This document shows positions 24,183 to 40,159 of a DNA stretch of 64,000 nt, in pieces (within the stretch, counting starts at the first letter, position 1; every line of letters starts with the position of its first letter). Position numbers and translations under genes: made by a program. Under the pieces are notes generated by a model. That model was not told the DNA's origin. It saw only the letters and a program-made list of their open reading frames with translations, and did no database searches. Origin of the DNA: Candidatus Hermodarchaeum yapensis (GTDB lineage Archaea; Asgardarchaeota; Hermodarchaeia; Hermodarchaeales; Hermodarchaeaceae); the NCBI GenBank assembly GCA_016840405.1, contig JAEOSK010000002.1, forward strand, positions 1 through 64,000. The letters are read 5' to 3'.

Positions 24183-25466
24183 TTACTGGAATTGGGTGAG
24201 AAGGTGTGTTATTACTTGATGTTCAGTAGGAATGTTTTGTGGTGCTTTTGCAAATGGTTTGAGGGGGACTGCTACGCCGTCCATACGATAGACGGTTCCG
24301 TCGGCTTCTACTCCAGTAAGGGCGGTGGGAATAACTACCATAGATTCCCGTGTGGTCATGGTAGGTTGAGTAGATAATGAAATGATTGGAATACTTTGAA
24401 GCGATTTTGCGATGGGTCCTGGAAGAAAGCTGAGCGCATCCCATCCGACAATTAAGGCTGCATCAAACTCATTGTTTCGTAATCCCTCTTGCATTGATGG
24501 ATAGGGTTTTGGTGTCTGTGAAGTGAAATCAACTAAAAACGGAAGCCCAGTTTCTTCTAAGCTCGTTTTAACTACTCCTGCTGAATTACAGAGTGTGACC
24601 ATGGGTAAGATAACACACGGTCGTTTTTTCTTGTCAAGTCGGTTTGCGACCTTGGCTAAAAGGGGAAGTGTGTTCGATTCATGAGGTGCATGTAATAATC
24701 CATTGCCATAGAATATGGCGATATAATCCGCCTCTTTGATCTGCTTGGAAAAACTGAGAAATTCGATTGCGGGGACTCCACCTACCTGTTCTGGTGGGGT
24801 ACCCAGGGTGCCTTTAAGTTCATTGAGTAGGGCGTTGAGGAAGTGTTCATCACCGTTTCTTGGATCAAGAATGAGTTGATGGTTTGCTAGCCGCATCGAT
24901 TCAGATTCACGAATGTCAACAACAGCAATAACGCGGCTTTCACGCCCCTCTGGAATATTAGTACCCTTCGGGAATACCGTATATCTACTTGCATGCCGAT
25001 GGTGACTTTCTGCAGGATTCACTCCCCAATAGACAATGAAATCCGCGAAGTTACGCACATCCTCTAACGTCGCTTTTTCGGCTTCCCCTCCCACAAGCTT
25101 GTAGTCTAAGAGCCGTCCATATTCAAAGCTAGCTGTACTATCAAAAACGCCCTTCAGACGTTTTGCCAAGGTTATACCCAAGCTCGAAACTTCGGAAGGG
25201 CTGTTGGACCACCCCAACAATAATGGTCGTTTACTCTCTGAAAGAATGGATACAGCTTGTTCATATGCCGCAGATAACGATACAGCCTGTTGTTTTCCCG
25301 TTCCCATTTTTACTTGGGGTTTAGTCAGTCGGGTTTTACTTCGAATGGAAGCACAATAAGCGTGGCCCAATGTGCAGAGCCCTAAAGATTGGAGATCAGA
25401 TTTCTTGAGAGAAACAGCTACGTCATCGCACACCACTGAACAACCACAGCAAACCGTATCTTGCAT
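24183..25466 (-). CDS. fwdB: Formylmethanofuran dehydrogenase subunit B-like protein with degenerate active site
   Basis: CxxCxxxCDD..C, ADFIVYWGVNPAESHHRH.SRY and GTVYRMDGV motifs are present. The CH and RGH motifs are replaced. Confidence 0.85.
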   Translation of the reverse strand: MQDTVCCGCSVVCDDVAVSLKKSDLQSLGLCTLGHAYCASIRSKTRLTKPQVKMGTGKQQAVSLSAAYEQAVSILSESKRPLLLGWSNSPSEVSSLGITLAKRLKGVFDSTASFEYGRLLDYKLVGGEAEKATLEDVRNFADFIVYWGVNPAESHHRHASRYTVFPKGTNIPEGRESRVIAVVDIRESESMRLANHQLILDPRNGDEHFLNALLNELKGTLGTPPEQVGGVPAIEFLSFSKQIKEADYIAIFYGNGLLHAPHESNTLPLLAKVANRLDKKKRPCVILPMVTLCNSAGVVKTSLEETGLPFLVDFTSQTPKPYPSMQEGLRNNEFDAALIVGWDALSFLPGPIAKSLQSIPIISLSTQPTMTTRESMVVIPTALTGVEADGTVYRMDGVAVPLKPFAKAPQNIPTEHQVITHLLTQFQ

Positions 25467-26131: not shown

Positions 26132-28582
26132 GTGACATCTTTGGCTAAACCAGCAACAAAGAAGGGAACAAAAAGCCAGTCCAAAACCATACGCAAGAAA
26201 CCAGGTAAGAAATTCCCACCCAAAACAGCCTTATTTCTCTGTCACTGTGGATCAAATATCAAAACCATCATAGATATCGATCAATTGAAAACGCATTATG
26301 AGAAACAGCCCAACATCGTGGTTAATGATGACGCTCATTTTTGTATTGAACAGGGCCTGAATCTGATTCGTGATACGATTCGAGAAAACCAAGTTGATTA
26401 TGTGGTGGTGGCTGCCTGTTCACCGCAATTGCATGGCGAGTTGATGAGCCAAACCGTTGAAGAGGCTGGGCTTAACCGGGGGCATCTAGTCATCGCCAAT
26501 ATCCGTGAGCAATGTAGTTGGGTCCATTGGGATAACCCAGAAGCTGCCACTGCTAAGGCTCGATTGATGATTGATGCAGCAATCAAAATGGCTGAACACA
26601 GCCTTCCAATTCATTCTATTGATATACCAATTACGAAACGCGTACTTGTCATTGGTGGAGGAGTTGCAGGCGCTACTTCTGCCATCCAACTTGCTGACGC
26701 GGGATACGAAGTGATACTGGTTGAACAATCAGGATTCTTGGGCGGACATATGGCCAAATGGGATAAACTCTTTCCGAGCCTAGATTGCAGTTTATGCATC
26801 CTCGGACCTCTCCTAACCCGAGTGGCTACGCATCCCAAGATTACGATGCTGACCCTCAGTGAAGTCACCGATATCCAAGGTACACCCGGGGACTATGAAG
26901 TCAAAATCCATCAAGAACCTCGATATGTAGACTTAGAAACCTGTAATGGCTGCAACAAATGCATAGAAATCTGTCCAATCGATGAGCCCAATGAGTATAA
27001 CTATGGGTTAGGCACTCGGAAGGCAATTATCCGACCGTATCCTAGTTCAGTTCCCCTGGCTCCCTATATTGACATGGACGCATGTGTGGGCTGCCAATCC
27101 TGCGTCGGAGTTTGTGAAAAGGAATCGATTCGCTTTGAGGATTCAGACCGGGACCATACTTTCAAAATCGGAGCAATCGTTGTCGCAACGGGATTTCAAC
27201 CCTTCAACCCTGAACACCTTAAAGAATATGGCTATGAGCGCTACTCAGATGTGATTACTGCCCCAGAACTAGAACGACTGTTGAATCCTTCTGGACCTTC
27301 TCAAGGAACAGTCATCCAACCATCAAATGGTGAACAACCAAGAAAAGCTGCTTTTGTGCAATGTGTGGGAAGTCGCGATATTCGAATTAGACGACCCTAT
27401 TGCAGTCGCATTTGCTGTACGTACGCAGTCAAAGAAGCCGTGCAACTAAGACTCGCCCAACCTGACACAGAGGTCTATATCTTCTATACTGACATGCGAA
27501 CCTTTGGAAAGGGATTTGAAGAGCTCTATGAACGTGCCGCACGCGAACATGGGGTAAACTTCATCCGTGGTCGTGTAGCCGAAATTGAAGAAGATCCACA
27601 AACCAAGAAACTGTTGGTTCGAGCTGAAGATACTGAGCTTTGTGAACCAATCGAGTTACCTGTCGATCTCGTTGTGCTCAGTGTGGGAGTCGATCCAGCA
27701 CCCACCAACCCGAAACTAGCAACCATTTTGAATCTTCCATTGGATGAGAATAACTTTTTCCTGGAAAAGCATCCCAAGTTGAATCCTACAGGAACATATT
27801 CTGCAGGCATCTTTCTTGCAGGGAATGCGCAAGGGCCCAAGGATATTGCGGACACGGTTACCCATGCAGGTTTGGCTGCGGCTCAAGTCTCGACATTACT
27901 ACACCGACGAAAAATATCTCTTGAAGTCCACGCTCCAATTCTCAATTCCCAACTGTGTGAAAGTTGTCGACTGTGTGAAAAAACTTGTGATGCAAATGCG
28001 ATATCCTTTGAGGGTTCTGATATTCCTCTCATCGATGAACTCGCCTGTACCGGGTGTGGTGCCTGTGTGGCTGCTTGTCCAACAGGCGCTTTGGATTTAC
28101 CTGGGTTTACTCGACAACAACTAAAGACAGCAGTAGACACTGCGTGTCAGAACAATCCCCTCCAACCTATTGTAATTGGTTTCTTATGCAACTGGTGCGC
28201 CTATGCTGCAGCAGACAGTGCTGGTGTCAATCGACTCCGGTATCCCCCCCAACTCATTCCAATTCGCGTCCCATGCAGTGGTCGTCTTGACCCGCTCCTC
28301 ATTTTGGAAGCTTTCTCTCAAGGGGCGGATGGTGTAGCAATCCTAGGCTGTCACGAACATGATTGCTATTATCGAACTGGAATGACAAAAACCAAAGGCC
28401 GAGTAGAAAATATGCTACCTATACTAAATGAGATGGGAATTAATCCAGACCGACTTTTTCTTGAGGGTACAGCAGCGTCTGAAGGAGGTCGGCTGGTAGA
28501 ACTCGTTTCAGATTTTGTGAAGAAAATCGCAGAGATGGGTCCTTTGGGTGCCGAACTGATAGTCAGCACGAAAAGTCGATAG
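26132..28582 (+). CDS. hdrA: Heterodisulfide reductase A fused to MvhD
   Basis: CHCGSNI, ANIREQCSWVH, IGGGVAG, QCVGSRD and YCSRICC motifs; C-terminal FLCNWCAYAAAD / PCSGR / GCHEHDCYY (MvhD). Confidence 0.95.
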   Translation: MTSLAKPATKKGTKSQSKTIRKKPGKKFPPKTALFLCHCGSNIKTIIDIDQLKTHYEKQPNIVVNDDAHFCIEQGLNLIRDTIRENQVDYVVVAACSPQLHGELMSQTVEEAGLNRGHLVIANIREQCSWVHWDNPEAATAKARLMIDAAIKMAEHSLPIHSIDIPITKRVLVIGGGVAGATSAIQLADAGYEVILVEQSGFLGGHMAKWDKLFPSLDCSLCILGPLLTRVATHPKITMLTLSEVTDIQGTPGDYEVKIHQEPRYVDLETCNGCNKCIEICPIDEPNEYNYGLGTRKAIIRPYPSSVPLAPYIDMDACVGCQSCVGVCEKESIRFEDSDRDHTFKIGAIVVATGFQPFNPEHLKEYGYERYSDVITAPELERLLNPSGPSQGTVIQPSNGEQPRKAAFVQCVGSRDIRIRRPYCSRICCTYAVKEAVQLRLAQPDTEVYIFYTDMRTFGKGFEELYERAAREHGVNFIRGRVAEIEEDPQTKKLLVRAEDTELCEPIELPVDLVVLSVGVDPAPTNPKLATILNLPLDENNFFLEKHPKLNPTGTYSAGIFLAGNAQGPKDIADTVTHAGLAAAQVSTLLHRRKISLEVHAPILNSQLCESCRLCEKTCDANAISFEGSDIPLIDELACTGCGACVAACPTGALDLPGFTRQQLKTAVDTACQNNPLQPIVIGFLCNWCAYAAADSAGVNRLRYPPQLIPIRVPCSGRLDPLLILEAFSQGADGVAILGCHEHDCYYRTGMTKTKGRVENMLPILNEMGINPDRLFLEGTAASEGGRLVELVSDFVKKIAEMGPLGAELIVSTKSR

Positions 28583-28651: not shown

Positions 28652-30343
28652 TTGGAGAGATTGAGGAAGGGTTTAGTCTTAGTTATATCATGCCTTCTTT
28701 TTTCCCTTCTACTCTTAGCTCCACTCTTGGTTATCGCCACTGCACAATCCCCTCAGTCGGACCTGACAATGGGCGATGACGATCTACTTTGGAGCTTCAA
28801 ATTTGGAGCAAACGACAGTCAAGACGCAGCATATTCAATAATCCAGTGTGAAGATGGTGGCTATCTAATCGTAGGCTCATCCCAGCTTGAAGAAACAACT
28901 GATGTGCTAATATTTCGATTAAATGATGCTGGAGAATTGGAATGGAGTGATATCCTAACTCAGGAGGGGACGGAAATCGCCAAAGAGGTCATTGAATGTG
29001 AATCTGGTGGTTACGCAATAATTGGATACAGCCAAAAACAAGGGGCAAATGGAACTCTATTAGAGTACGATGCCCTCCTGATTCGAATTGCCTCAAACGG
29101 GACGATTGTATGGATTCAAACCATTGGGGATAATTCATCACAACAAGCGTATTCTATTGTCGAGTGCCAGGATGGCGGATTTGCTTTTGCTGGCTATACT
29201 CACAGTTCTGAAAGCAATAACTTGGATTTCTGGCTCGTTCGAACATCCAGCGAAGGACAAGCGCTCTGGAACAGAACCTACGATACCATAGGAAATGAGA
29301 TTTGTAACTCATTGGTTGAAAATCATTATGGAGGATTTGTCCTGGTTGGAAGCAAAGAAAATATAGATACAGGAGAACTGGATGGCTGGATCATTTGCAC
29401 CGACAGCATAGGGAATCTTCATTGGGAACGAATTTTTGATATGTCTGGAGATGATGTGTGTAACAAGATTATACGCAAATCATATATCGGATATGTCATT
29501 GTGGGAACAACAGAGAATGTCCCCGAAGGAAGCTTCGACGCTTTTGCCCTAAGTGTTCTAGCAAATGGTAATTTTTCCTGGAACTCAATCCTAGAAGGAC
29601 CCTATGAAGAAGAAGCCTATGACATCACTTCTTGCCAAAATGGTGGATTTGCCATTACAGGATACACTATCGAAGAAACCGAGTTTGGGATGAAAACACA
29701 CCTCTTGTTAGCTCGATTGGAAAGCAACGGAGATGTACAATGGAACAAGCGGTATGGCGGGATGGGTAAAGAAATTGGCTGGTCAATAATTCAATCACCT
29801 TCTCACGATTTTATCATCGCAGGGACAACCAAATCATACAACAGTAATGAACCTGGGATTAATGCACTGATAATACGTGTACCAGATGCTGAAACCGATA
29901 CGAATCCTTTCGGAGAACCTGGTCCCCCGAACTACGATTTAATTGCCTTTGGTGCAATTTTCGGAATTATCATTATTGCAGGGATGTCAGTGATCTATTC
30001 TCGCAGTAAACGAGAAATTACTGAGGTTGAGATTGGCTTCTCAAATCGGCAGCTTGGACAAACATTCTTGATCCCACGTACACTAAAAGAGGTCACATCA
30101 ATTCTTCGAGGAATCGTCCGCTGTCGCAAATGTGGAACAATTCAAAAAAGAAAACAGATAATCTGCAATCATTGTATTGCACTACTGCACAGGTGCTTGT
30201 TTTGCGATAACACAATGGATAATGAGGATTTAGTCATTTTTTGTCCGAGTTGTAGGAATCTTTCTCATGCACATGAAATGATATCTTGGCTGAAAAAAAG
30301 AAAGACTTGTCCAATCTGTGGATTCAAATTAAAAAAAAGATAG
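28652..30343 (+). CDS. Single-pass protein: beta-propeller ectodomain, TM, cytoplasmic zinc ribbon and RING-like domain
   Basis: Signal peptide; about 7 repeats of GG(Y/F)xIxG...G...W; TM LIAFGAIFGIIIIAGMSVIY; CxxC..CxxC; CLFC-x12-CPSC-x4-H..W..CPIC. Confidence 0.8.
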   Translation: MERLRKGLVLVISCLLFSLLLLAPLLVIATAQSPQSDLTMGDDDLLWSFKFGANDSQDAAYSIIQCEDGGYLIVGSSQLEETTDVLIFRLNDAGELEWSDILTQEGTEIAKEVIECESGGYAIIGYSQKQGANGTLLEYDALLIRIASNGTIVWIQTIGDNSSQQAYSIVECQDGGFAFAGYTHSSESNNLDFWLVRTSSEGQALWNRTYDTIGNEICNSLVENHYGGFVLVGSKENIDTGELDGWIICTDSIGNLHWERIFDMSGDDVCNKIIRKSYIGYVIVGTTENVPEGSFDAFALSVLANGNFSWNSILEGPYEEEAYDITSCQNGGFAITGYTIEETEFGMKTHLLLARLESNGDVQWNKRYGGMGKEIGWSIIQSPSHDFIIAGTTKSYNSNEPGINALIIRVPDAETDTNPFGEPGPPNYDLIAFGAIFGIIIIAGMSVIYSRSKREITEVEIGFSNRQLGQTFLIPRTLKEVTSILRGIVRCRKCGTIQKRKQIICNHCIALLHRCLFCDNTMDNEDLVIFCPSCRNLSHAHEMISWLKKRKTCPICGFKLKKR

Positions 30344-30457: not shown

Positions 30458-31918
30458 ATGACAAAAACGCACAGGGATCGAATCACCGTAGGCGAGCGCC
30501 CAAAGGTTACGAGTGAGATTCTCAACGATACCAATATCCAGTACAATTGGAAAACTTCGTTACTTAATAAGAACCTAAAATATGACCTAACTCGGTGTGT
30601 TGGCTGTAGTCTTTGTATTCCCTGTCCGTGGGATGCTATCGAATTGGGTCCAGTACAAGAAGTTGCTGCTGGTCGAATGGAAGGCGCCCCCCTCGTCCTC
30701 ATTGACGAAGACAAATGCACGTTTTGTGGATTGTGTGATTCAGCGTGCCTTTTCAACGCCATAGAAGCCCGGTTTGATGATATCCCTGCTGACGTTAAAT
30801 ATGCTCGATTAAAAGGCAAACATGAACTCGACGAAGACAAATGTGCGCCGTGTCTGCTATGTGCAAAGATTTGTCCACGCGAAGCAATCTCGGTTGAGCT
30901 CAAGGTTACCCCGAAAACTGGGTTAGTCAAATATCAAGACCCGAAAGCCGCTCAATGGGTGGCGAAAGGCAAACCCGAGGCCACCGGCTCTATCAAAATT
31001 GATGAAGACAAATGCACATGGTGCGGCCTGTGTGAATTACTATGCCCCGAATGCATTACCATTTACTGGCACGAAGAAAAACCCCAACCTCCCGATTTCA
31101 AACCCGCAGTGAGTATTCGGGTTGATACCACCCACTGTGATTATTGTGGACTCTGTGAAACCATCTGTCCCTCCGATGCTGTACGTGTGACTTGCGACAA
31201 ATCCCCCCCTCGCCAAATCAAGGACCCGAAAGTTGAAGGCACCATGACCATTGATGATGGCTTGTGTGTCGACTGCACACTCTGCGCCCTGAAATGTCCC
31301 TATGAAGCCCTAGATGTTACTCTTCCACTAACTGGGGATGTTGAAATCCATAATTTAGAGAAATGTGACCCGACAGGCTGTGTCAATTGTTTCAACATCT
31401 GTCCCACCAAAGCCATCTATGCAACGGGAGACAAAGACAAAATCGCCATCAACAAAGAGATATGTGTCTTCTGCGGCGCGTGCGAAAACGCGTGCCCTGA
31501 ACAAGTCCTCAAAGTCACCCGCGATAGTTACCAACTCTCCCAAATCGAAGAAGCCCGAGGTTGGGAACGGGGTCGTGCTCTACACTTTTATGATCAGCTA
31601 GTTGGACGTGAAGCACCTCAAAATAACATTTATGAACGTGTGATTAAAGCTTCCCCGGTTAAACCTTCAGTGCCTATCCAAACCAAATCTGAAGATTGGT
31701 CTGAAAGCAAACTTAATCGCCGACTAGCCCAAGACCGAGTCCGGAAAGTTCAGGAGTTTATCAAAAAGAATTGGCGATTACGATTGCTCTTTGAGAGAGG
31801 TCGTGTTGGTCCTCTCTTCACGGCTCTTCGTAAAGAGACTCTTAAGAAAACTAGTATACAAGCACCGAGTGAATCGAGGTCCGAACCGAAGAAAAACTCT
31901 TCAAAAAAGTCTCAATGA
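30458..31918 (+). CDS. fwdF: Polyferredoxin, FwdF-like
   Basis: Eight CxxCxxCxxxC-type motifs; PWDAIELGPV..VAAG and CDPTGCVNC motifs. Confidence 0.85.
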   Translation: MTKTHRDRITVGERPKVTSEILNDTNIQYNWKTSLLNKNLKYDLTRCVGCSLCIPCPWDAIELGPVQEVAAGRMEGAPLVLIDEDKCTFCGLCDSACLFNAIEARFDDIPADVKYARLKGKHELDEDKCAPCLLCAKICPREAISVELKVTPKTGLVKYQDPKAAQWVAKGKPEATGSIKIDEDKCTWCGLCELLCPECITIYWHEEKPQPPDFKPAVSIRVDTTHCDYCGLCETICPSDAVRVTCDKSPPRQIKDPKVEGTMTIDDGLCVDCTLCALKCPYEALDVTLPLTGDVEIHNLEKCDPTGCVNCFNICPTKAIYATGDKDKIAINKEICVFCGACENACPEQVLKVTRDSYQLSQIEEARGWERGRALHFYDQLVGREAPQNNIYERVIKASPVKPSVPIQTKSEDWSESKLNRRLAQDRVRKVQEFIKKNWRLRLLFERGRVGPLFTALRKETLKKTSIQAPSESRSEPKKNSSKKSQ

Positions 31919-32367: not shown

Positions 32368-32519
32368 ATATTTCTTATTTTTTGGCATGGGATAAAATTT
32401 GAAAATAATAGAGCACCCTGTTGATGTTCGAATATCAGCTAAGATAACGGTACTAAGTTTCAAGAAGAGTAAGCGCTATTCCGAGAAAAAAGTTCAGTAA
32501 GGCTAAGTATTGTGTGTAA
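32368..32519. repeat. 152-bp direct repeat copy 1, ending in a 27-bp site
   Basis: Ungapped match to 33834-33985, about 80% identical by manual count. Confidence 0.92.
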
Positions 32520-32597
32520 AGAAGCATCGATTATAGATTTTGCCAATAAAATAAATTGAAGTACGAATTCGAAAAAAGGGAGAATCACAGATTTTAA

Positions 32598-33158
32598 TCA
32601 TTCATTCTTGCATGGATTCTTCGATTTTTCTCCCAATTTAAATTGTTTGATTTTATAGAACAACATGACCGCCAGTGCAACTAGGGTTGCTAATATACAA
32701 AGATTACCAAGATTCCAAAAGATGATCACGAATTCGTTAATGGTAAAACGCCATCCCATAAATCCCCAAAGGCTTGAAGACCGGAAGGAGAGTCCAGCGA
32801 AACCTCCAATTGAATACGACACAATAGCGAGAAATACTGATAAGATTATGATACCCTTTCCATATTCGGGGTTCTTCCTGTAAAGGTGGACGAAAATCAG
32901 AATGGCTAGTTGTGCGCATAGGACATAACCGCCCACCATTATGATTAACTCATACGGAATATAGGAGATGCTTAAGATGATCTGGCGCAGAATTATGGAG
33001 ATGCGAAAGATGATCTGCTGTATGTGAAAGATGATCTGCTGCGGAATCATTCCTGAAACAACTATTATCCAGAGGATGGTGACGACACAGGCTAGGATGA
33101 GTGACATCAACACTATTTTTAGGAACTTGCGTTTTGCATTATTCATTCGACTTCCCAT
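32598..33158 (-). CDS. Orphan membrane protein with short internal tandem repeats
   Basis: Hydrophobic helices; QQIIFHIQQIIFRI repeat. Confidence 0.6.
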   Translation of the reverse strand: MGSRMNNAKRKFLKIVLMSLILACVVTILWIIVVSGMIPQQIIFHIQQIIFRISIILRQIILSISYIPYELIIMVGGYVLCAQLAILIFVHLYRKNPEYGKGIIILSVFLAIVSYSIGGFAGLSFRSSSLWGFMGWRFTINEFVIIFWNLGNLCILATLVALAVMLFYKIKQFKLGEKSKNPCKNE

Positions 33159-33159
33159 T

Positions 33160-33627
33160 TTATATCACTAACATTAACACAACAAATCCATCCGAGGATG
33201 CCGTAACCATATAGTTTTGGAGGATATGAAGAGTCAGCGTCATTTCAATCAATCTACTCCTCCACATATGTTTCTCGCTGTACCGATAGGGTTCGTTGTA
33301 CTCGCCGCCCTTGGCTTCCAACCAAAGCAGGTGGTGGTTCCAGCAATAGCAAAGCCTCCATTCAAACAGATCATAACCATCTTCAATCCTATAGTAACCA
33401 AGCGTGTAGGTTGTATTCCATATGGCACTCTTAATCGGAGCGTTGTACTTGTTTTTGATAGTAGACGGAAGAATATCTTGAGTCGAAACTAATACTCGAA
33501 AAGATTGTCTTTGTACTGAAGTAAAAGAAGCAAGTAGGTGCAGTATTATAATTACCGCGAATAGGTAAAGTTGTATGATTGGTGCTGTCTTGAATACCGC
33601 TTTATTCGGGTAGACAGCAGATTGCAC
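33160..33627 (-). CDS. Orphan protein, possibly degraded
   Basis: GGGGAG RBS before GTG; abuts the next ORF; no recognisable family. Confidence 0.4.
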   Translation of the reverse strand: MQSAVYPNKAVFKTAPIIQLYLFAVIIILHLLASFTSVQRQSFRVLVSTQDILPSTIKNKYNAPIKSAIWNTTYTLGYYRIEDGYDLFEWRLCYCWNHHLLWLEAKGGEYNEPYRYSEKHMWRSRLIEMTLTLHILQNYMVTASSDGFVVLMLVI

Positions 33628-33718
33628 TTAACTCCCCTGAACATGAGAAGATAGCAATTCGAAGTACAAAAACACTCGTATTCACAGCTAGGAGCTAGAT
33701 GTTTTTCTGACGAAAAAT

Positions 33719-33745
33719 TTTAGTAAGGCTTGGATTTGTAAGTTC
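33719..33745. repeat. 27-bp site copy
   Basis: TTTAGTAAGGCTTGGATTTGTAAGTTC after an A-tract. Confidence 0.75.
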
Positions 33746-33833
33746 AAACTAATTATTAGTTGATTAATTGAATTTGCTATACATTAGATGTAAACATATA
33801 ATTACAGGAAAATATACCTCAATGTTGATTAAA

Positions 33834-33985
33834 ATATTTCTTATTTTTTGACAGAGCATAAGATATGAAAATAATAGAGTACCCTGTTGCTGTTCGAATA
33901 TCAGTTAAGAATACGGGACTATGTTTCGCGTAGAGTAAGCGCTATTCTGAGGAAAAATTTCAGTGAGCTCTGATTTTGTGAGTAT
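33834..33985. repeat. 152-bp direct repeat copy 2, ending in a 27-bp site
   Basis: Matches 32368-32519. Confidence 0.92.
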
Positions 33986-34304
33986 TAAATCTTTTACACT
34001 CACAGGTTAACATAATAGAAAAACGAATAAAATAATCAAACTCTTAGGGAATACTCATCTTTAGTAAATATATGTCTGACTGAAACTCCTGCTGGTTCCT
34101 CCTTACTAAGGTCCAACGACTTGCAGTACTCTCTATTTGTTGAGTATTTTTTTGAATCCATCACACAACTCAGGGTTGCGGAGTATAACTCTGATTGTCG
34201 CAACTGAATCTGATAGATATTTGATTTCGTAGCGATTGGTTTTACGGAAAACCCTGGAAAGCATTTCGTAGTCTGGAGTATTACGCCATAAATACATGAG
34301 AACC

Positions 34305-34336
34305 AAAAAAAGAAAAGAAGGGAGGCCAAGCCTCCC
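34305..34336 (-). terminator. Hairpin plus T-tract terminator
   Basis: GGGAGGC-CAA-GCCTCCC followed by a T-rich run on the minus strand, just after the stop at 34347. Confidence 0.7.
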
Positions 34337-34346
34337 AAAAATGCAA

Positions 34347-34835
34347 TCACTCAGTTACAATAAGGGTTTCAATAAAGACCAGCACAGGTTCGTGTCCGAT
34401 ATAAAGCTCGACTCGCCAGTCATACTCGCCGGGTGTGAAGTAGTCCGCTTCGAAAATTATATAGTAAATGAACGCGTGATAAGGTCCTGGTAACTCTGGG
34501 TCATAGTAGTCTTTATCGTTGAAAACAAAGTGTTTGTTCTTAAGATCGATTTCCGTGTCGTCAATGAATAGCTTCGCTTCAAAAGGTCGCCATTCTGAGA
34601 GAAAATTACTCGGAATACCAAAGCAGCCGTGCCATACGTTACTTTGTTTACTAGCACTAATTTCCATACTAACCCACGGATGAATACGTTGGCCATGGCT
34701 CTCTATCCAATCTACAAACTCCCACGGACCATATTGTTTTGCTTGCACGGATTGTAGACAGGGGAGCACGCAGAACACGAGCAAACACACCAGACTTACT
34801 TTTAGCAACTGTTTCTGTTTCATTGAAATTTCCAC
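34347..34835 (-). CDS. Orphan secreted protein
   Basis: Signal peptide ending VQA; own TATA and terminator. Confidence 0.7.
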   Translation of the reverse strand: MEISMKQKQLLKVSLVCLLVFCVLPCLQSVQAKQYGPWEFVDWIESHGQRIHPWVSMEISASKQSNVWHGCFGIPSNFLSEWRPFEAKLFIDDTEIDLKNKHFVFNDKDYYDPELPGPYHAFIYYIIFEADYFTPGEYDWRVELYIGHEPVLVFIETLIVTE

Positions 34836-34960
34836 TCCAATTGTACGCCACTTCGTGGCGTCGAGTTAAAGTATGATATATATCGTATATAAGAGTTAGA
34901 GGTTTTTTTCTCTACACGCCGTTTTACTTAGATAAACATTTAACCATCAGATAAAAAAAG

Positions 34961-34987
34961 CCCAGTAAGGCTTGGGTTTATGAGTAG
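34961..34987. repeat. 27-bp site copy
   Basis: CCCAGTAAGGCTTGGGTTTATGAGTAG after an A-tract; a half copy TGATTCTGTGAGTAA lies at 35042-35056. Confidence 0.75.
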
Positions 34988-35106
34988 TGTCTTTAGTGTT
35001 AGTGGCGATTTCTTCTTTCGCCACATAAGATGAGCGTTGCGTGATTCTGTGAGTAAAAGCATATCGGATGTCTTTGACCCACTTCTTTTAGTTTTTATTG
35101 GATTAT

Positions 35107-36063
35107 TCAAGGCTTCTTCCTGATAACCCCTGAGAAACCCATTAAGATTAATCCGATTAGGGAAATAAGCAAGGCTACCCCGGATAAAATGAGTGGAAGT
35201 GGATTCTCAGGCGTCATCCAGGGGTATCGAGGGCTTCCAGTGACCCCGGATAAATAGTATGTGAAGTAAAAAAATACTGCCAAGAGTATTCCCATTATGC
35301 ATACGGTGATACCACTCCACCGCATGATTGTACCAATTAGTGTAAAATCTCTTTTGAAGTAGAAATCTGACTCTATTGGTTCAAGTGAATGATAGAATCT
35401 TAGTATCCCTAAGACTGCTGCTCCAAATATGGACACAATTTGTAGTATTGGTAGAAAATAACCTAATGAGAATACAGATATTGGGAGAAAGTACCACGAA
35501 CCAAATGCAATTGTAAGGATACCTGCAATTATGAAAAAGGTAGTAGTAGTCTTTTGAATCGAATGGGATTTCGAATTAATTGGTATCTTCCTAAAAGCTA
35601 TTCCCCAGATTACCAAACCAAACCCGATTAGGAGATTAAGGGCTAAAAGCGTGTACAATTCGGAGAAAATGAAGATAATGAAAGCCGGTTGTGTAAGTAT
35701 TGTTGGCAACCAGAATTGGAAAGAAAGAAATAGTGCCGTAATTGTAATTCCTGTAAACAGGATAGAATAGCCAGTAACAAACAGGGCTATTTCAGACTGA
35801 TAAATTCTCCAATACCCCAAGAATGCGACCCCGATGAGAATTACACTTAGAAACTTCAGGAAAAAGATGACAATCCAGGTTCCTTGAGGTAACCCCATGT
35901 ATGCTCCTGCATTAAGAGAATAAGCAACAATTAGTAGGATCATTCCGATGATCCCAAGGTGAAAATAGACTCTTATCCGAGCCTCAGGCTGTTCAACAGG
36001 TTTTAGAGTTCGCTCTTTTGCACTTTCAATCGAAAATGTGATATTCGGCAAGAATTCCCGCAC
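35107..36063 (-). CDS. Orphan polytopic membrane protein
   Basis: About 8 TM helices; AT-rich. Confidence 0.7.
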   Translation of the reverse strand: MREFLPNITFSIESAKERTLKPVEQPEARIRVYFHLGIIGMILLIVAYSLNAGAYMGLPQGTWIVIFFLKFLSVILIGVAFLGYWRIYQSEIALFVTGYSILFTGITITALFLSFQFWLPTILTQPAFIIFIFSELYTLLALNLLIGFGLVIWGIAFRKIPINSKSHSIQKTTTTFFIIAGILTIAFGSWYFLPISVFSLGYFLPILQIVSIFGAAVLGILRFYHSLEPIESDFYFKRDFTLIGTIMRWSGITVCIMGILLAVFFYFTYYLSGVTGSPRYPWMTPENPLPLILSGVALLISLIGLILMGFSGVIRKKP

Positions 36064-36143
36064 CCACAGGTTTGAAGGTGTATCGAATTAATAAGCGTTT
36101 AGAAAACAATCGTGAAGATCAAATTTCCCAATTGATTAAAAAA

Positions 36144-36170
36144 ATAAGAAAGGCCTGGTTTTGTGAGTAA
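36144..36170. repeat. 27-bp site copy
   Basis: ATAAGAAAGGCCTGGTTTTGTGAGTAA after an A-tract. Confidence 0.75.
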
Positions 36171-36315: not shown

Positions 36316-38274
36316 ATGGGGATGTCATACAAGAATCGTCTCCTCTTCTGTTCACTCATACTCATCTGCTTAATTGGCGCCACAAGTCTTTTTGCACCTG
36401 ACACTTCGGTAACGAGTCGGGCGGATTGGACCTATCCTAGTGGCTTCGACCCCCATGGTGGCCATATTGACCGATTGACTATGGTAGTTTATCCTTCAAA
36501 TGCGACATCGAGAGCTCTACAGGATTTGGAGGCGAACAATATCTATGCCTACGACGACAACGTCCCCCTTTCTTCCATCGATGAACTCGTAATGCAATCC
36601 AACATTGAGGTCAATACGGAACAGGGTACCGGCTTACTCTTATTCTCATTCCGCAATTGGTTCCCCGCAAACATTTCGGGGTATCGTCGTGCACTCGCTT
36701 ATGCACTAGATAAATACGTTGTATGTGAACGGTCAACCGATGGCTATGCATTGCCTATTGATGGGGTTATCCCTCTTGCCAACTCAACTTATTCGTATGA
36801 ATCCCAGATTACCGAGTATTTCTATAGTAAAGAAATTGTGAAAGCAAATGCTTCCTTGGAAGCTTGTGGTTTCCGCGATTTGGACGGTGACGGCTGGCGT
36901 GAATACGATGCAAACAACAACAGCCTATGGGACGCTGATATAGACGTTGATGATGGCAGTTGGGCTCACGATTTCTTATGGCTTCCCATATACGTATGGC
37001 TAGGTGACGATCCTGCTTTTCATGCTGCTGAAATACTGGTTGAAGGTATGGCAGAATGTGGGCTTCATGGAGCTGTTATTGAATGGGACCCATATACATA
37101 TACTGAGTGGCCCCCTGAGAAGGCCTGGTGTTCCATGTGGAATGGACCAATTTCTGAAGAGCCAAACTTCCTTTATTTATTACATACTGGTTCTTATACC
37201 AGTCAATACTTGGACTACAGTAATCCAGAGTATGATGTAAACGTCACTCTCATGTACGGGGCTTCAACGAAACTAGAGGTTCGAGACTGGGCCTGGAACT
37301 GTTCTCAGATTCTTCTCCAGGATATGCCAATCATCCCGTGCTATAACGATGTCATCACCCAAGCTTACTGGACCGATCTGTGGGAGGGCTATGTGAATAT
37401 GCTGGGGGTCAATCGGTTGGGGAATAATCCCTGGACCTTTACCCACCTCCGCCTTAAGGATGAAGCGGGTGGTCCATTTGGTCCCTACCCCACAGAATAC
37501 CTTTGTGCCCTTACTGAGGGGATGGATTCTACGAATATTCGAGTATCCAGCAGTCGTTACGCGGATCGGGTGTTTATGAATGTGTATAGTCGTTTATGGC
37601 AGATGGATCCCCTCACCTGGGAGGAAGTCCCTGACCTCGCATACGACTGGATGATTGAACCCACTGAGCCTTCCGGGGATATCCGCTTGGGACAGAAGTT
37701 CACCTTCCACCTTTATGAGAACGTAACCTGGCATGATGGGACGCTTTTCACTGCTCAGGATGTTGCATTCAGTTTTAATCATATTTGGAAAGGGATGAGT
37801 AGTTGGGAAGGCGGTTTCTATACAACTGACCCTGTCGATAATATCTATCGCATCGACACCCCTGACGATTATACTGTTGTCATTTACACCAACCAAACTG
37901 GATACTTGGAATTTTATAAAGGCACACATCACTATATCCTGCCAAAACATATTTGGGAACAACATCTATGGAATGGAACCGACTCTCTCATGGATTGGGA
38001 GCCTTCAACACCACAGGATTTGGTAGGAACTGGCCCGTTTCGTTGGGTGAATCGAGTTCCCGGTTCGTATATCGTGTTGGATCGCCATTATAACTGGCAT
38101 TTCACTGTTGATCAGTCTCTACGAACACCAATGATTCCATGGACTCTATACATATTCATTTCTCTGGGAATTATCATTGTTCTCATCCAGATCGGGATTC
38201 TCGGATATCTCCTCAATAAGCGAAGGGCGTCTAAGACCAAACATCAATATAACCAGAAAAAGGGTGACGCCTGA
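36316..38274 (+). CDS. ABC peptide/nickel-type substrate-binding protein (family 5), C-terminally anchored
   Basis: RRALAYALDK, VPDLAYDW, TWHDGT.FTAQDVAFS and VGTGPF motifs. Confidence 0.88.
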   Translation: MGMSYKNRLLFCSLILICLIGATSLFAPDTSVTSRADWTYPSGFDPHGGHIDRLTMVVYPSNATSRALQDLEANNIYAYDDNVPLSSIDELVMQSNIEVNTEQGTGLLLFSFRNWFPANISGYRRALAYALDKYVVCERSTDGYALPIDGVIPLANSTYSYESQITEYFYSKEIVKANASLEACGFRDLDGDGWREYDANNNSLWDADIDVDDGSWAHDFLWLPIYVWLGDDPAFHAAEILVEGMAECGLHGAVIEWDPYTYTEWPPEKAWCSMWNGPISEEPNFLYLLHTGSYTSQYLDYSNPEYDVNVTLMYGASTKLEVRDWAWNCSQILLQDMPIIPCYNDVITQAYWTDLWEGYVNMLGVNRLGNNPWTFTHLRLKDEAGGPFGPYPTEYLCALTEGMDSTNIRVSSSRYADRVFMNVYSRLWQMDPLTWEEVPDLAYDWMIEPTEPSGDIRLGQKFTFHLYENVTWHDGTLFTAQDVAFSFNHIWKGMSSWEGGFYTTDPVDNIYRIDTPDDYTVVIYTNQTGYLEFYKGTHHYILPKHIWEQHLWNGTDSLMDWEPSTPQDLVGTGPFRWVNRVPGSYIVLDRHYNWHFTVDQSLRTPMIPWTLYIFISLGIIIVLIQIGILGYLLNKRRASKTKHQYNQKKGDA

Positions 38275-38275
38275 G

Positions 38276-40159
38276 ATGAGACACAAACCAAGAATAACCC
38301 TTTGGGTAGGTGTGGTTTTTTTTTGTATACTCATCTTCATTCAGGGCTGTTCCTCCCTCTCCTCACAACCCATTCCATCAAAGACGTGGACCTATCCCGA
38401 CGGTTATGACCCCCACGGCGGATACCTGGACCGGGTGACCTTCGTCGTCTATCCCCCCGAAGACGAACAACTGGGGCTCCAAGCCCTTCAGGCGAACATT
38501 ATCTATGCGTGGGACGAGCATGTCTCTGCCGAGAACATTACCGAGCTTGAAGCGGCACCCGGTGTGGAGGTTGCCACTGAACCCGGGGATTTGTATCGCA
38601 TGTTTGCGCTTGACTGTGGAACATTCCCCATGAATATTACCGGATACCGGCGAGCTATTGCTTTTGCCCTAGATAAATATGCTGTCGTTCAGGGGTCAAC
38701 AGATGGCCTTGGATTACCCCAAGATTGTGCAATTCCACGCGCTCTGACCAATTGGACCTATGAAAGTCAGCTCACTGAAACCTACTATGCACAAGATATC
38801 GTCAAAGCTAACGCCTCCTTGGAGGCAGCAGGTTTCCGAGACCTCACGAGTGACGGCTGGCGAGACTACGATGCGGATTTGAGTGGGACACTAACCTCTG
38901 GCGATAAGAATAGTCATGAAGTCGCGATCAGTTTTTTATATACAGGACATATTCCCTTGACCAATGCTATCACATTGGCAATAGAAGGATTGGCTAAGTG
39001 TGGTATTCGTGCTTATACCGTCCCTTGGGACCCTTACGATCCTATTGGACGATATTATGATGTAGGGACTCATACAATCAATCTTAAGGAATCCGGGGAT
39101 CTGTTTTTGTTGTATCACTTTTTCCATAGTTCCACAGGTGCCAACGAATGGTATTTTGGAGGCTGGAGGAACGACACTTACAATCAATACGCTGAGAACC
39201 TGATGGCTGCACGAACCAAAGAGGAGGTTCAGTACTGGACCTGGAAATGTCAGGAGATTCTTTGGTATGAACAGCCCATGATTGTCTGCTACAACGACGT
39301 CTTTACCAATGCTTATCGAACGGACATCTGGGAAGACTACATCAACATGCAAGGTCGGAACCGGATCGGGAACGGCTACAGCCTCGTGCACATCAAGCTC
39401 AAGGAAGAAGCAGGCGGTCCCTTCGGGTGTTTCCCTACCGAGTATATCATGAGCCTGAACGAAGGGCTAGATACGACCAACTATCTACGGAGCAATTCAG
39501 AATACACAAAAACGGTATTCCAGCTCGTCTACGAGAGACTTTGGACCTACTCACCCTATGATTGGACCCCCCAGCCGTCACTCGCCTATGCTTGGGAAAC
39601 GGAAGCTACTGTTGCCTCCGGGGATATCCAAGAGGGGGAGAAGTACACTTTCCATCTCTTTGAGAATGCCACCTGGCACGATGGAACTCCGGTCACTGCC
39701 GATGATGTGGCATTTAGTGTGTCACTGGGATTACAAGATCCGTACAACGCGGAAAACTATCAACACGTTTACAAGACCAACATTGTCGATAACATGACGA
39801 TTGAAATCTTCACCAACGCAACGGGCTTCTTCGAGTGGACACGGGCCACGGGTTTTACCGTCTATCCCGCACACATCTGGTCACTCCCATCTAGCATCTT
39901 CTCGTGGGTTCCAACCGTGCCTGAACTGGTGGGGTCCGGACCCTACATCTTCGCTGCCTATGTCCAAGGGCAATATGTGGTGTTGGACCGCAATCCTGAG
40001 TGGCACTTTGCTGTATCACAACCTCCACGCACTCCATGTCCTGTAACAGTTGATTGCTTTTGGTGTTATCCTTTGCTCTTGGGGATCATCATTATTCAAG
40101 TTTGCATCTTAGTGTATTTGGTTAATCGGCGTCGCAGTAGGGACGCTTCCAAGAAATGA
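38276..40159 (+). CDS. ABC substrate-binding protein (family 5), tandem paralog
   Basis: ATG at 38276; same motifs and domain order as the upstream gene. Confidence 0.88.
   Translation: MRHKPRITLWVGVVFFCILIFIQGCSSLSSQPIPSKTWTYPDGYDPHGGYLDRVTFVVYPPEDEQLGLQALQANIIYAWDEHVSAENITELEAAPGVEVATEPGDLYRMFALDCGTFPMNITGYRRAIAFALDKYAVVQGSTDGLGLPQDCAIPRALTNWTYESQLTETYYAQDIVKANASLEAAGFRDLTSDGWRDYDADLSGTLTSGDKNSHEVAISFLYTGHIPLTNAITLAIEGLAKCGIRAYTVPWDPYDPIGRYYDVGTHTINLKESGDLFLLYHFFHSSTGANEWYFGGWRNDTYNQYAENLMAARTKEEVQYWTWKCQEILWYEQPMIVCYNDVFTNAYRTDIWEDYINMQGRNRIGNGYSLVHIKLKEEAGGPFGCFPTEYIMSLNEGLDTTNYLRSNSEYTKTVFQLVYERLWTYSPYDWTPQPSLAYAWETEATVASGDIQEGEKYTFHLFENATWHDGTPVTADDVAFSVSLGLQDPYNAENYQHVYKTNIVDNMTIEIFTNATGFFEWTRATGFTVYPAHIWSLPSSIFSWVPTVPELVGSGPYIFAAYVQGQYVVLDRNPEWHFAVSQPPRTPCPVTVDCFWCYPLLLGIIIIQVCILVYLVNRRRSRDASKK

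Follow-up and report, generated by a model that had tools for sequence, protein, structure and literature searches.

The locus analyzed here raises the question of what a membrane protein with a RING-like zinc tail does in an Asgard archaeon, and whether its place between two redox genes has any bearing on that role. In the 64,000-nucleotide stretch of Candidatus Hermodarchaeum yapensis DNA that was analyzed (the window), a preliminary description had noted a receptor-like protein with a signal peptide, an ectodomain of about seven repeats, one transmembrane (TM) segment, a cytoplasmic CxxC/CxxC ribbon and a terminal RING motif, encoded between hdrA-mvhD and fwdF. The flanking genes do encode an HdrA-MvhD fusion and an FwdF-like polyferredoxin, which are separated from the RING gene by 69 and 114 bp, respectively, all on one strand (Table 1). 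The open reading frame (ORF) comprises 563 codons from a TTG start, which is possibly a few codons off. No Pfam or NCBIfam family scored above its cut-off for any part of the 563-aa product, and a match to DUF2064 was repeat-level only.

Table 1. Features of the RING gene and its neighbors (positions in the window)
Feature	Position	Strand	Basis
Whole ORF, single-pass membrane protein, 563 aa	28652..30343	+	open frame
Signal peptide or signal anchor (putative), residues 1-31, basic start, hydrophobic core 10-28	28652..28744	+	hydropathy, AlphaFold2
Seven-bladed beta-propeller ectodomain, residues 47-410, ~52-aa repeats	28790..29881	+	AlphaFold2, fold comparison
Transmembrane helix, residues 430-448, then basic stretch (positive inside)	29939..29995	+	hydropathy, AlphaFold2
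Cytoplasmic linker, residues 452-488, two short helices against zinc module in the model	30005..30115	+	model
C4 zinc ribbon, C491, C494, C505, C508	30122..30175	+	Pfam, alignment
RING finger, C515-C556, ligand order C4-H-E-C2; F517, W546, P554 at E2-facing positions	30194..30319	+	fold, alignment
Glu542 (GAA), in place of the family's His zinc ligand 6	30275..30277	+	alignment
Gly557, linchpin position (Arg in 16/16 operon RINGs examined)	30320..30322	+	alignment
hdrA-mvhD fusion, upstream neighbor (context only)	26132..28582	+	NF040770 E 1e-275, PF02662
fwdF-like polyferredoxin, downstream neighbor (context only)	30458..31918	+	NF042909 E 2e-64, under cut-off

Hydropathy analysis revealed only two hydrophobic segments, residues 10-28 and 430-448. 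An AlphaFold2 model (mean pLDDT 84; 24-sequence alignment as input) placed helices at residues 2-31 and from residue 428, in agreement with the putative signal peptide and the single TM segment first described, and 28 strands in residues 47-410; a confidently modeled zinc module follows the second helix. The strands form seven four-stranded blades, with closure by the first strand, and the repeat count of the ectodomain is thereby borne out. Six N-glycosylation sequons were found in the ectodomain, one of which is kept in 22 of 32 orthologues, and conserved Cys residues occur in six of the seven blades. Taken together, the sequons and the basic residues after the TM helix suggest that the propeller is extracellular and the zinc module cytoplasmic. 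These features are best explained by a type I topology, in which a glycosylated propeller lies outside the cell and the ribbon+RING inside.

The closest solved fold to the propeller was that of CylK (E 2e-22, rmsd of about 4 Å over 400 columns, 19% identity); this likeness is one of fold only, and no CylK-like enzyme activity was assigned to the propeller. Neighbors of the propeller in the Atlas were secreted or surface propellers, a match to TIGR02608 fell far under the cut-off, and the ~52-aa repeats are shared with archaeal and bacterial seven-bladed surface propellers (delta-60/DUF5122/SBBP-like). The genome itself encodes at least eight propeller paralogues, all of which lack a RING tail. 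Surface propellers of this kind form a large family, whose members are too distant for a ligand or an activity to be transferred to the 563-aa protein.

The cytoplasmic tail contains a ribbon, C491-x2-C494-x10-C505-x2-C508, followed by C515LFC-x12-C531PSC-x4-H539AHE542-x3-W546-x6-C553PIC, letter for letter as first described. All ten Cys residues and H539 were invariant in the cytoplasmic alignment. That these last 75 residues might form tandem zinc ribbons and no cross-brace RING was raised by weak matches of the excised piece to Pfam models (DZR and ribbons, E 2e-4) and by the RING-H2 model (C3H2C3; zf-RING_2, PF13639), which differs in ligand order and scored 25.1 bits, below its cut-off of 27.3. 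In a model of residues 452-563 (pLDDT 89), however, the separate ribbon was confined to C491-C508, and the remainder adopted a RING fold with a central helix at residues 540-550, which superposed on RNF38, RNF13 and Ark2C/RNF165 at 1.2-1.5 Å over 46-49 residues (29-33% identity), the RNF13 superposition being 1.3 Å over 49 residues. The best matches of the family profile among PDB sequences were RING-H2 E3s (E 4e-8), and Prok-RING_1 (PF14446) reached 20.9 bits against a cut-off of 29.1, with half of the model matched. Seven of the eight zinc-ligand positions of the RING hold Cys or His, and the sixth holds Glu542; we regard the tandem-ribbon alternative as barely tenable.

About 30 distinct full-length orthologues (32-86% identity) carry the entire architecture, which is therefore not a chance pattern, and it was present in 13 of the 15 genomes of the genus. 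Those homologues that carry a taxon name come from Hermodarchaeota/Promethearchaeota. The ribbon+RING cassette reached further: matches were found in 108 of 151 sampled genomes (E 1e-8), with 302 representatives at E 1e-10, and the ligand order of this family is C4-H2-C2, as in the RINGs encoded in Asgard ubiquitin operons. Among 136 non-orthologous representatives, hydropathy alone predicted a TM segment before the RING in 84 and a long ectodomain in 23, so the architecture is not unique to the 563-aa gene. The cassette is a common Asgard module, and five other RING-cassette proteins are encoded in this genome. In the sister genus (G015-G018; e.g., L018, L033, L038) the cassette has expanded, with 10-32 ribbon+RING matches per genome where this genus has 3-7. 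The copies frequently lie clustered in tandem and sit on a wide variety of membrane proteins, one of them a 926-aa propeller-TM-ribbon-RING protein.

The placement between hdrA-mvhD and fwdF is retained in orthologues down to 32% identity, and this retention, with the common strand and short gaps, could be read as a sign that the RING protein assists or controls the HdrA-MvhD/FwdF redox module, for instance by tethering or degrading it. The site does not require the gene, however. In G016 and G017, which belong to the sister genus, the redox genes lie within about 20 bp of each other and nothing intervenes; in G003 the RING gene is likewise missing and 130 bp separate hdrA-mvhD from fwdF; and in G013 a RING-less propeller-TM gene lies alone between them. 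Such a RING-less gene (27% identity; L014:9707-11086, L091/L096 and several of L022-L030) stands as a second gene in tandem at the locus in many relatives. Since the whole region around hdrA-fwdF is syntenic among relatives, the position is inherited and not selected, and a redox role for the protein appears very improbable. Genes for surface proteins insert at this site, the RING gene being one such passenger, and the hdrA/fwdF context indicates no link to redox metabolism. The ribbon+RING tail is itself a detachable cassette: orthologue P0013 (55% identity, same locus) stops immediately behind its TM helix, which leaves no space for a tail. In its two occurrences (L101:3501-4856 and L102:1552-2907) the gene ends 94 bp before fwdF, and the cytoplasmic cassette has been cleanly lost. 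A promoter and terminator scan gave counts at chance level, its model being bacterial and the host archaeal.

Several other features were observed nearby. On the minus strand at 24183-25466 of the window, an FwdB-like protein is encoded that exceeds the TIGR03129 cut-off (339 vs 327.8 bits) and reads STASFEYG at the position where FwdB has its metal-ligating Cys; no fwdA/C or hdrB/C was found between 20 and 40 kb of the window. Downstream, at 32479-36168, minus-strand orphan genes are separated by a 39-nt element that occurs in five direct copies, and 151-nt and 42-nt repeat pairs nearby extend to 40618; this segment, with its repeats, looks like an inserted cargo island. Two tandem, related secreted proteins of 650 aa with C-terminal TM anchors (36316-40159, plus strand) look like peptide-binding ABC components. 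Relatives carry a 1320-aa PEP synthase-like gene in which intein and LAGLIDADG matches occur (L011:14829-17662, L014:16176-17626).

The preliminary description had suggested that the sixth zinc ligand is either Glu or a His shifted by one position. Ligand 6 was His in 18 orthologues and Glu in 14, including the 563-aa protein, and was His in 130 of the 136 other family representatives. The shifted His was rejected: P0009, a Glu protein, has Asn at the neighboring position, and elsewhere this position holds His, Glu, Asn, Ser, Leu, Lys, Asp or Pro beside a normal His ligand. That this Glu-clade member lacks the neighboring His implies that Glu is the substitute, and this half of the suggestion stands. 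The Glu orthologues form one clade (support 100/100, 51-86% identity) nested among the His orthologues. A second family in the same genomes, of short TM-ribbon-RING proteins, also has Glu at ligand 6, and a single origin of all Glu RINGs was rejected by the AU test (p=0.006) with the ligand column masked, over 73 columns only. The His-to-Glu change thus arose at least twice. A short TM-ribbon-RING paralogue with Glu at ligand 6 and a Gly linchpin lies on the same contig outside the window (G000:C39:85462-86022; L046); it is conserved in several genomes of the genus, and its Glu is of independent origin.

Some RINGs have carboxylate ligands, for example the Asp of RBX1 and TRAF6, which makes a Cys2-His-Glu site plausible. 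We infer that zinc site 1 would be Cys2-His-Glu in place of Cys2-His2, with Glu542 as a putative ligand. The rate of the RING, expressed as tree length relative to the propeller, was 0.48 in the Glu clade versus 1.04 on the His branches, a ratio of 0.46 (0.27-0.76 in 60 column bootstraps; 38 columns, protein rates). The corresponding ratio for the ribbon was 0.41, and 25 overlapping propeller windows gave 0.48-1.84, all above the RING value. This is moderate evidence that the Glu-clade RING did not decay after the change, its relative rate being about half that of its His relatives. Of the two possibilities raised at the outset, a variant RING or an inactive one, conservation across the 14-member clade favors the former, and the rate ratio counts against decay.

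The genome encodes the partners that a RING ligase would need. Its E2 scored above the Pfam cut-off and carries HPN, a catalytic Cys and both loop motifs, PY and PS; its ubiquitin ends in GG, with E1 adjacent and a small RING in the same operon. The absence of E2 and ubiquitin, which would have spoken against a ligase, is thus contradicted by a RING-ubiquitin-E2-E1 operon, and all but one of the 19 class genomes have an E2. Genes for a Vps23-like protein with a UEV domain and for a Vps4-like ATPase are present as well. Contigs C19 and C40 overlap, end to start, inside the E2 gene, so that the ESCRT, RING, ubiquitin, E2 and E1 genes form one cluster. The RING of the 563-aa protein aligned with the operon RING of this genome ungapped and with the same spacing (30% identity), and it has the spacing C-x2-C-x12-C-x2-C-x4-H-x2-X-x3-W-x6-CP-x-C of the Asgard operon-type RING E3. 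Operon RINGs are active E3s in Caldiarchaeum (PMC5654768) and in a Helarchaeon, where the RING acts with UEV-Vps23 in one pathway (10.1101/2023.07.25.550441). We found no assay in the literature for any membrane-bound Asgard RING.

Position by position, the RING retains part of what an E2 would contact. In the Caldiarchaeum RING, srfp, Ile30, Trp58 and Arg69 are all important to the cascade, and R69A impaired it (PMC5654768); by alignment, these residues would correspond to F517, W546 and G557. The Trp and CPxC of E2-binding RINGs had been described as retained, and W546, F517 and P554 are invariant in all 14 Glu-clade proteins. The position equivalent to Ile30 is Phe in the 563-aa protein, and Val or Ile in 133 of 136 family representatives. 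The linchpin was Gly in 21, Arg in 7 and Lys in 1 of the 32 orthologues; Arg occurs in 7 of the 14 Glu-clade proteins, and Gly in 14 of the 18 His-type orthologues. In RNF38, R454G lowered the affinity for E2~Ub 36-fold (PMC12326332). The linchpin Gly, more than Glu542, would therefore argue against a strong stand-alone ligase. A co-fold of the ribbon+RING with the E2 of the genome scored 0.00 in a run made without controls and was counted neither for nor against E2 binding.

Three groups of known systems invite comparison. The operon RINGs of Caldiarchaeum subterraneum, Helarchaeota Hel_GB_B and the same genome share the RING fold, the Trp and the loop hydrophobics (the first two were compared by their descriptions, and the ligand spacing is identical to that of the genome's own operon RING). 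The 563-aa protein differs from them in its fused ribbon, TM helix and 370-aa ectodomain, in the location of its gene outside the operon, and at two residues: its ligand 6 position is Glu and its linchpin Gly, whereas the 16 class operon RINGs examined all have His and Arg there. With the PA-TM-RING ligases (RNF13, RNF43, ZNRF3), to which the protein had been likened, it shares a putative signal peptide, an ectodomain, one TM segment and a cytoplasmic RING. The topology holds but the ectodomain does not, since these ligases have a PA domain and the 563-aa protein has a propeller with no PA match; it also has the extra ribbon, and C4-H-E-C2 instead of C3H2C3. The likeness is best taken as an analogy of layout, and not as established common descent. 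Finally, a C-terminal ribbon directly followed by a RING is shared with GATOR2/SEACAT (MIOS, WDR24, WDR59) and IFT-A (WDR19/IFT144, IFT122), and the family profile over the whole tandem matched WDR19, WDR24 and MIOS (E 1e-6 to 4e-6). The top matches of the tail model were GATOR2 chains (Foldseek E 5e-4), with IFT-A also present; in the VIA comparison the top match was WDR59 with Z 7.5 (rmsd 5.2 Å, 87 aligned), against 6.6 for RING E3s, which is a tie. These subunits are soluble cytoplasmic WD40-solenoid scaffolds, whereas the 563-aa protein is anchored in the membrane; its propeller is extracellular and not of the WD40 type, it has no solenoid, and only a 37-residue linker follows the TM helix. 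It lies outside the RING-H2, PA-TM-RING and GATOR2/IFT-A families, and it differs from operon RINGs at two hallmark residues. Literature searches, confined for the most part to openly available papers, yielded no description of Asgard ectodomain-TM-RING proteins, of a link between Asgard and GATOR2 RINGs, or of Glu-ligated RINGs, which does not prove that there is none.

We infer that the 563-aa protein is a membrane-anchored E3, probably weak or dependent on a partner, and give this reading a probability of about 0.5. Its RING would bind the genome's E2~ubiquitin via F517, W546 and P554 and promote ubiquitin transfer to its own tail, which has 11 cytoplasmic lysines, or to adjacent bound membrane proteins; the ubiquitin might then mark targets for the UEV-Vps23/ESCRT machinery encoded beside ubiquitin. 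Control of the ligase by the ectodomain, if any, would be a further step. This reading is favored by the superposition on active RING-H2 E3s, the operon-RING spacing, the Ub/E1/E2 set, the invariant E2-facing residues and the slowed RING of the Glu clade. It is weakened by G557, by Glu542 and by Phe at the Ile30 position, by the fact that GATOR2/IFT-A tails match the tandem no less well than E3s match the isolated RING, and by the loss of the tail or gene in some relatives. The absent linchpin Arg is the reason for supposing a weak ligase, or one that needs a partner RING or a dimer. Alternatively, the tail may be a zinc-stabilized interaction module, as in GATOR2/SEACAT and IFT-A, that does not activate E2 by itself but makes dimers or clusters of surface proteins, or assists another RING as a non-catalytic partner, for which the five other RING-cassette proteins are candidates. 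The fold and whole-tandem matches suit such a role, as do Gly557 and Glu542 and the strong conservation that includes the ribbon, and in yeast the Sea2/3/4 RINGs are required to keep the complex together (PMC8534245). Against it, the structural match is a tie, Z values under 8 being common; the protein has neither an alpha-solenoid nor a cytoplasmic WD40 domain; the Trp and Pro that would face E2 are still in place, and the linchpin is Arg in half of the Glu clade; and WDR24 itself has been proposed as an E3, although this is contested (PMC12507694). We consider this scaffold role possible but somewhat doubtful.

The RING could also be an inactive remnant that lost a zinc ligand, with only the surface propeller being of consequence. 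Both ligand 6 and the linchpin deviate, P0013 ends after its TM helix, G003 lacks the gene and G013 has the propeller-TM gene only. Against this, a clade of 51-86% identity shows no variation in the other seven ligands or in the Trp, Phe and Pro, the RING slowed and did not accelerate after the Glu change, and the same substitution was fixed independently in the second family; a remnant is accordingly quite improbable. At the other extreme, binding at the propeller might control ubiquitination by a selected Cys2-His-Glu RING, which would make the protein a ligand-regulated receptor E3 in a prokaryote. We hold this to be unlikely. If true, it would represent an independently assembled Asgard counterpart of RNF43/ZNRF3-type signaling, built on the same ribbon+RING cassette as eukaryotic GATOR2 and IFT-A.

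What appears to be new here, at the level of sequence, is the variation in the Glu ligand and the linchpin within an Asgard ectodomain-TM-RING orthogroup. Asgard ubiquitin cascades have so far been reconstituted with small soluble RINGs only, and membrane-anchored ribbon+RING proteins are direct candidates for the ubiquitination of membrane cargo for the Asgard ESCRT machinery. The orthogroup gives natural pairs that differ in ligand 6 (His or Glu), in the linchpin (Arg or Gly) and in whether the tail is present or deleted. These pairs make the choice between ligase and scaffold testable, a question that bears on the ancestor of the GATOR2 and IFT-A tails.
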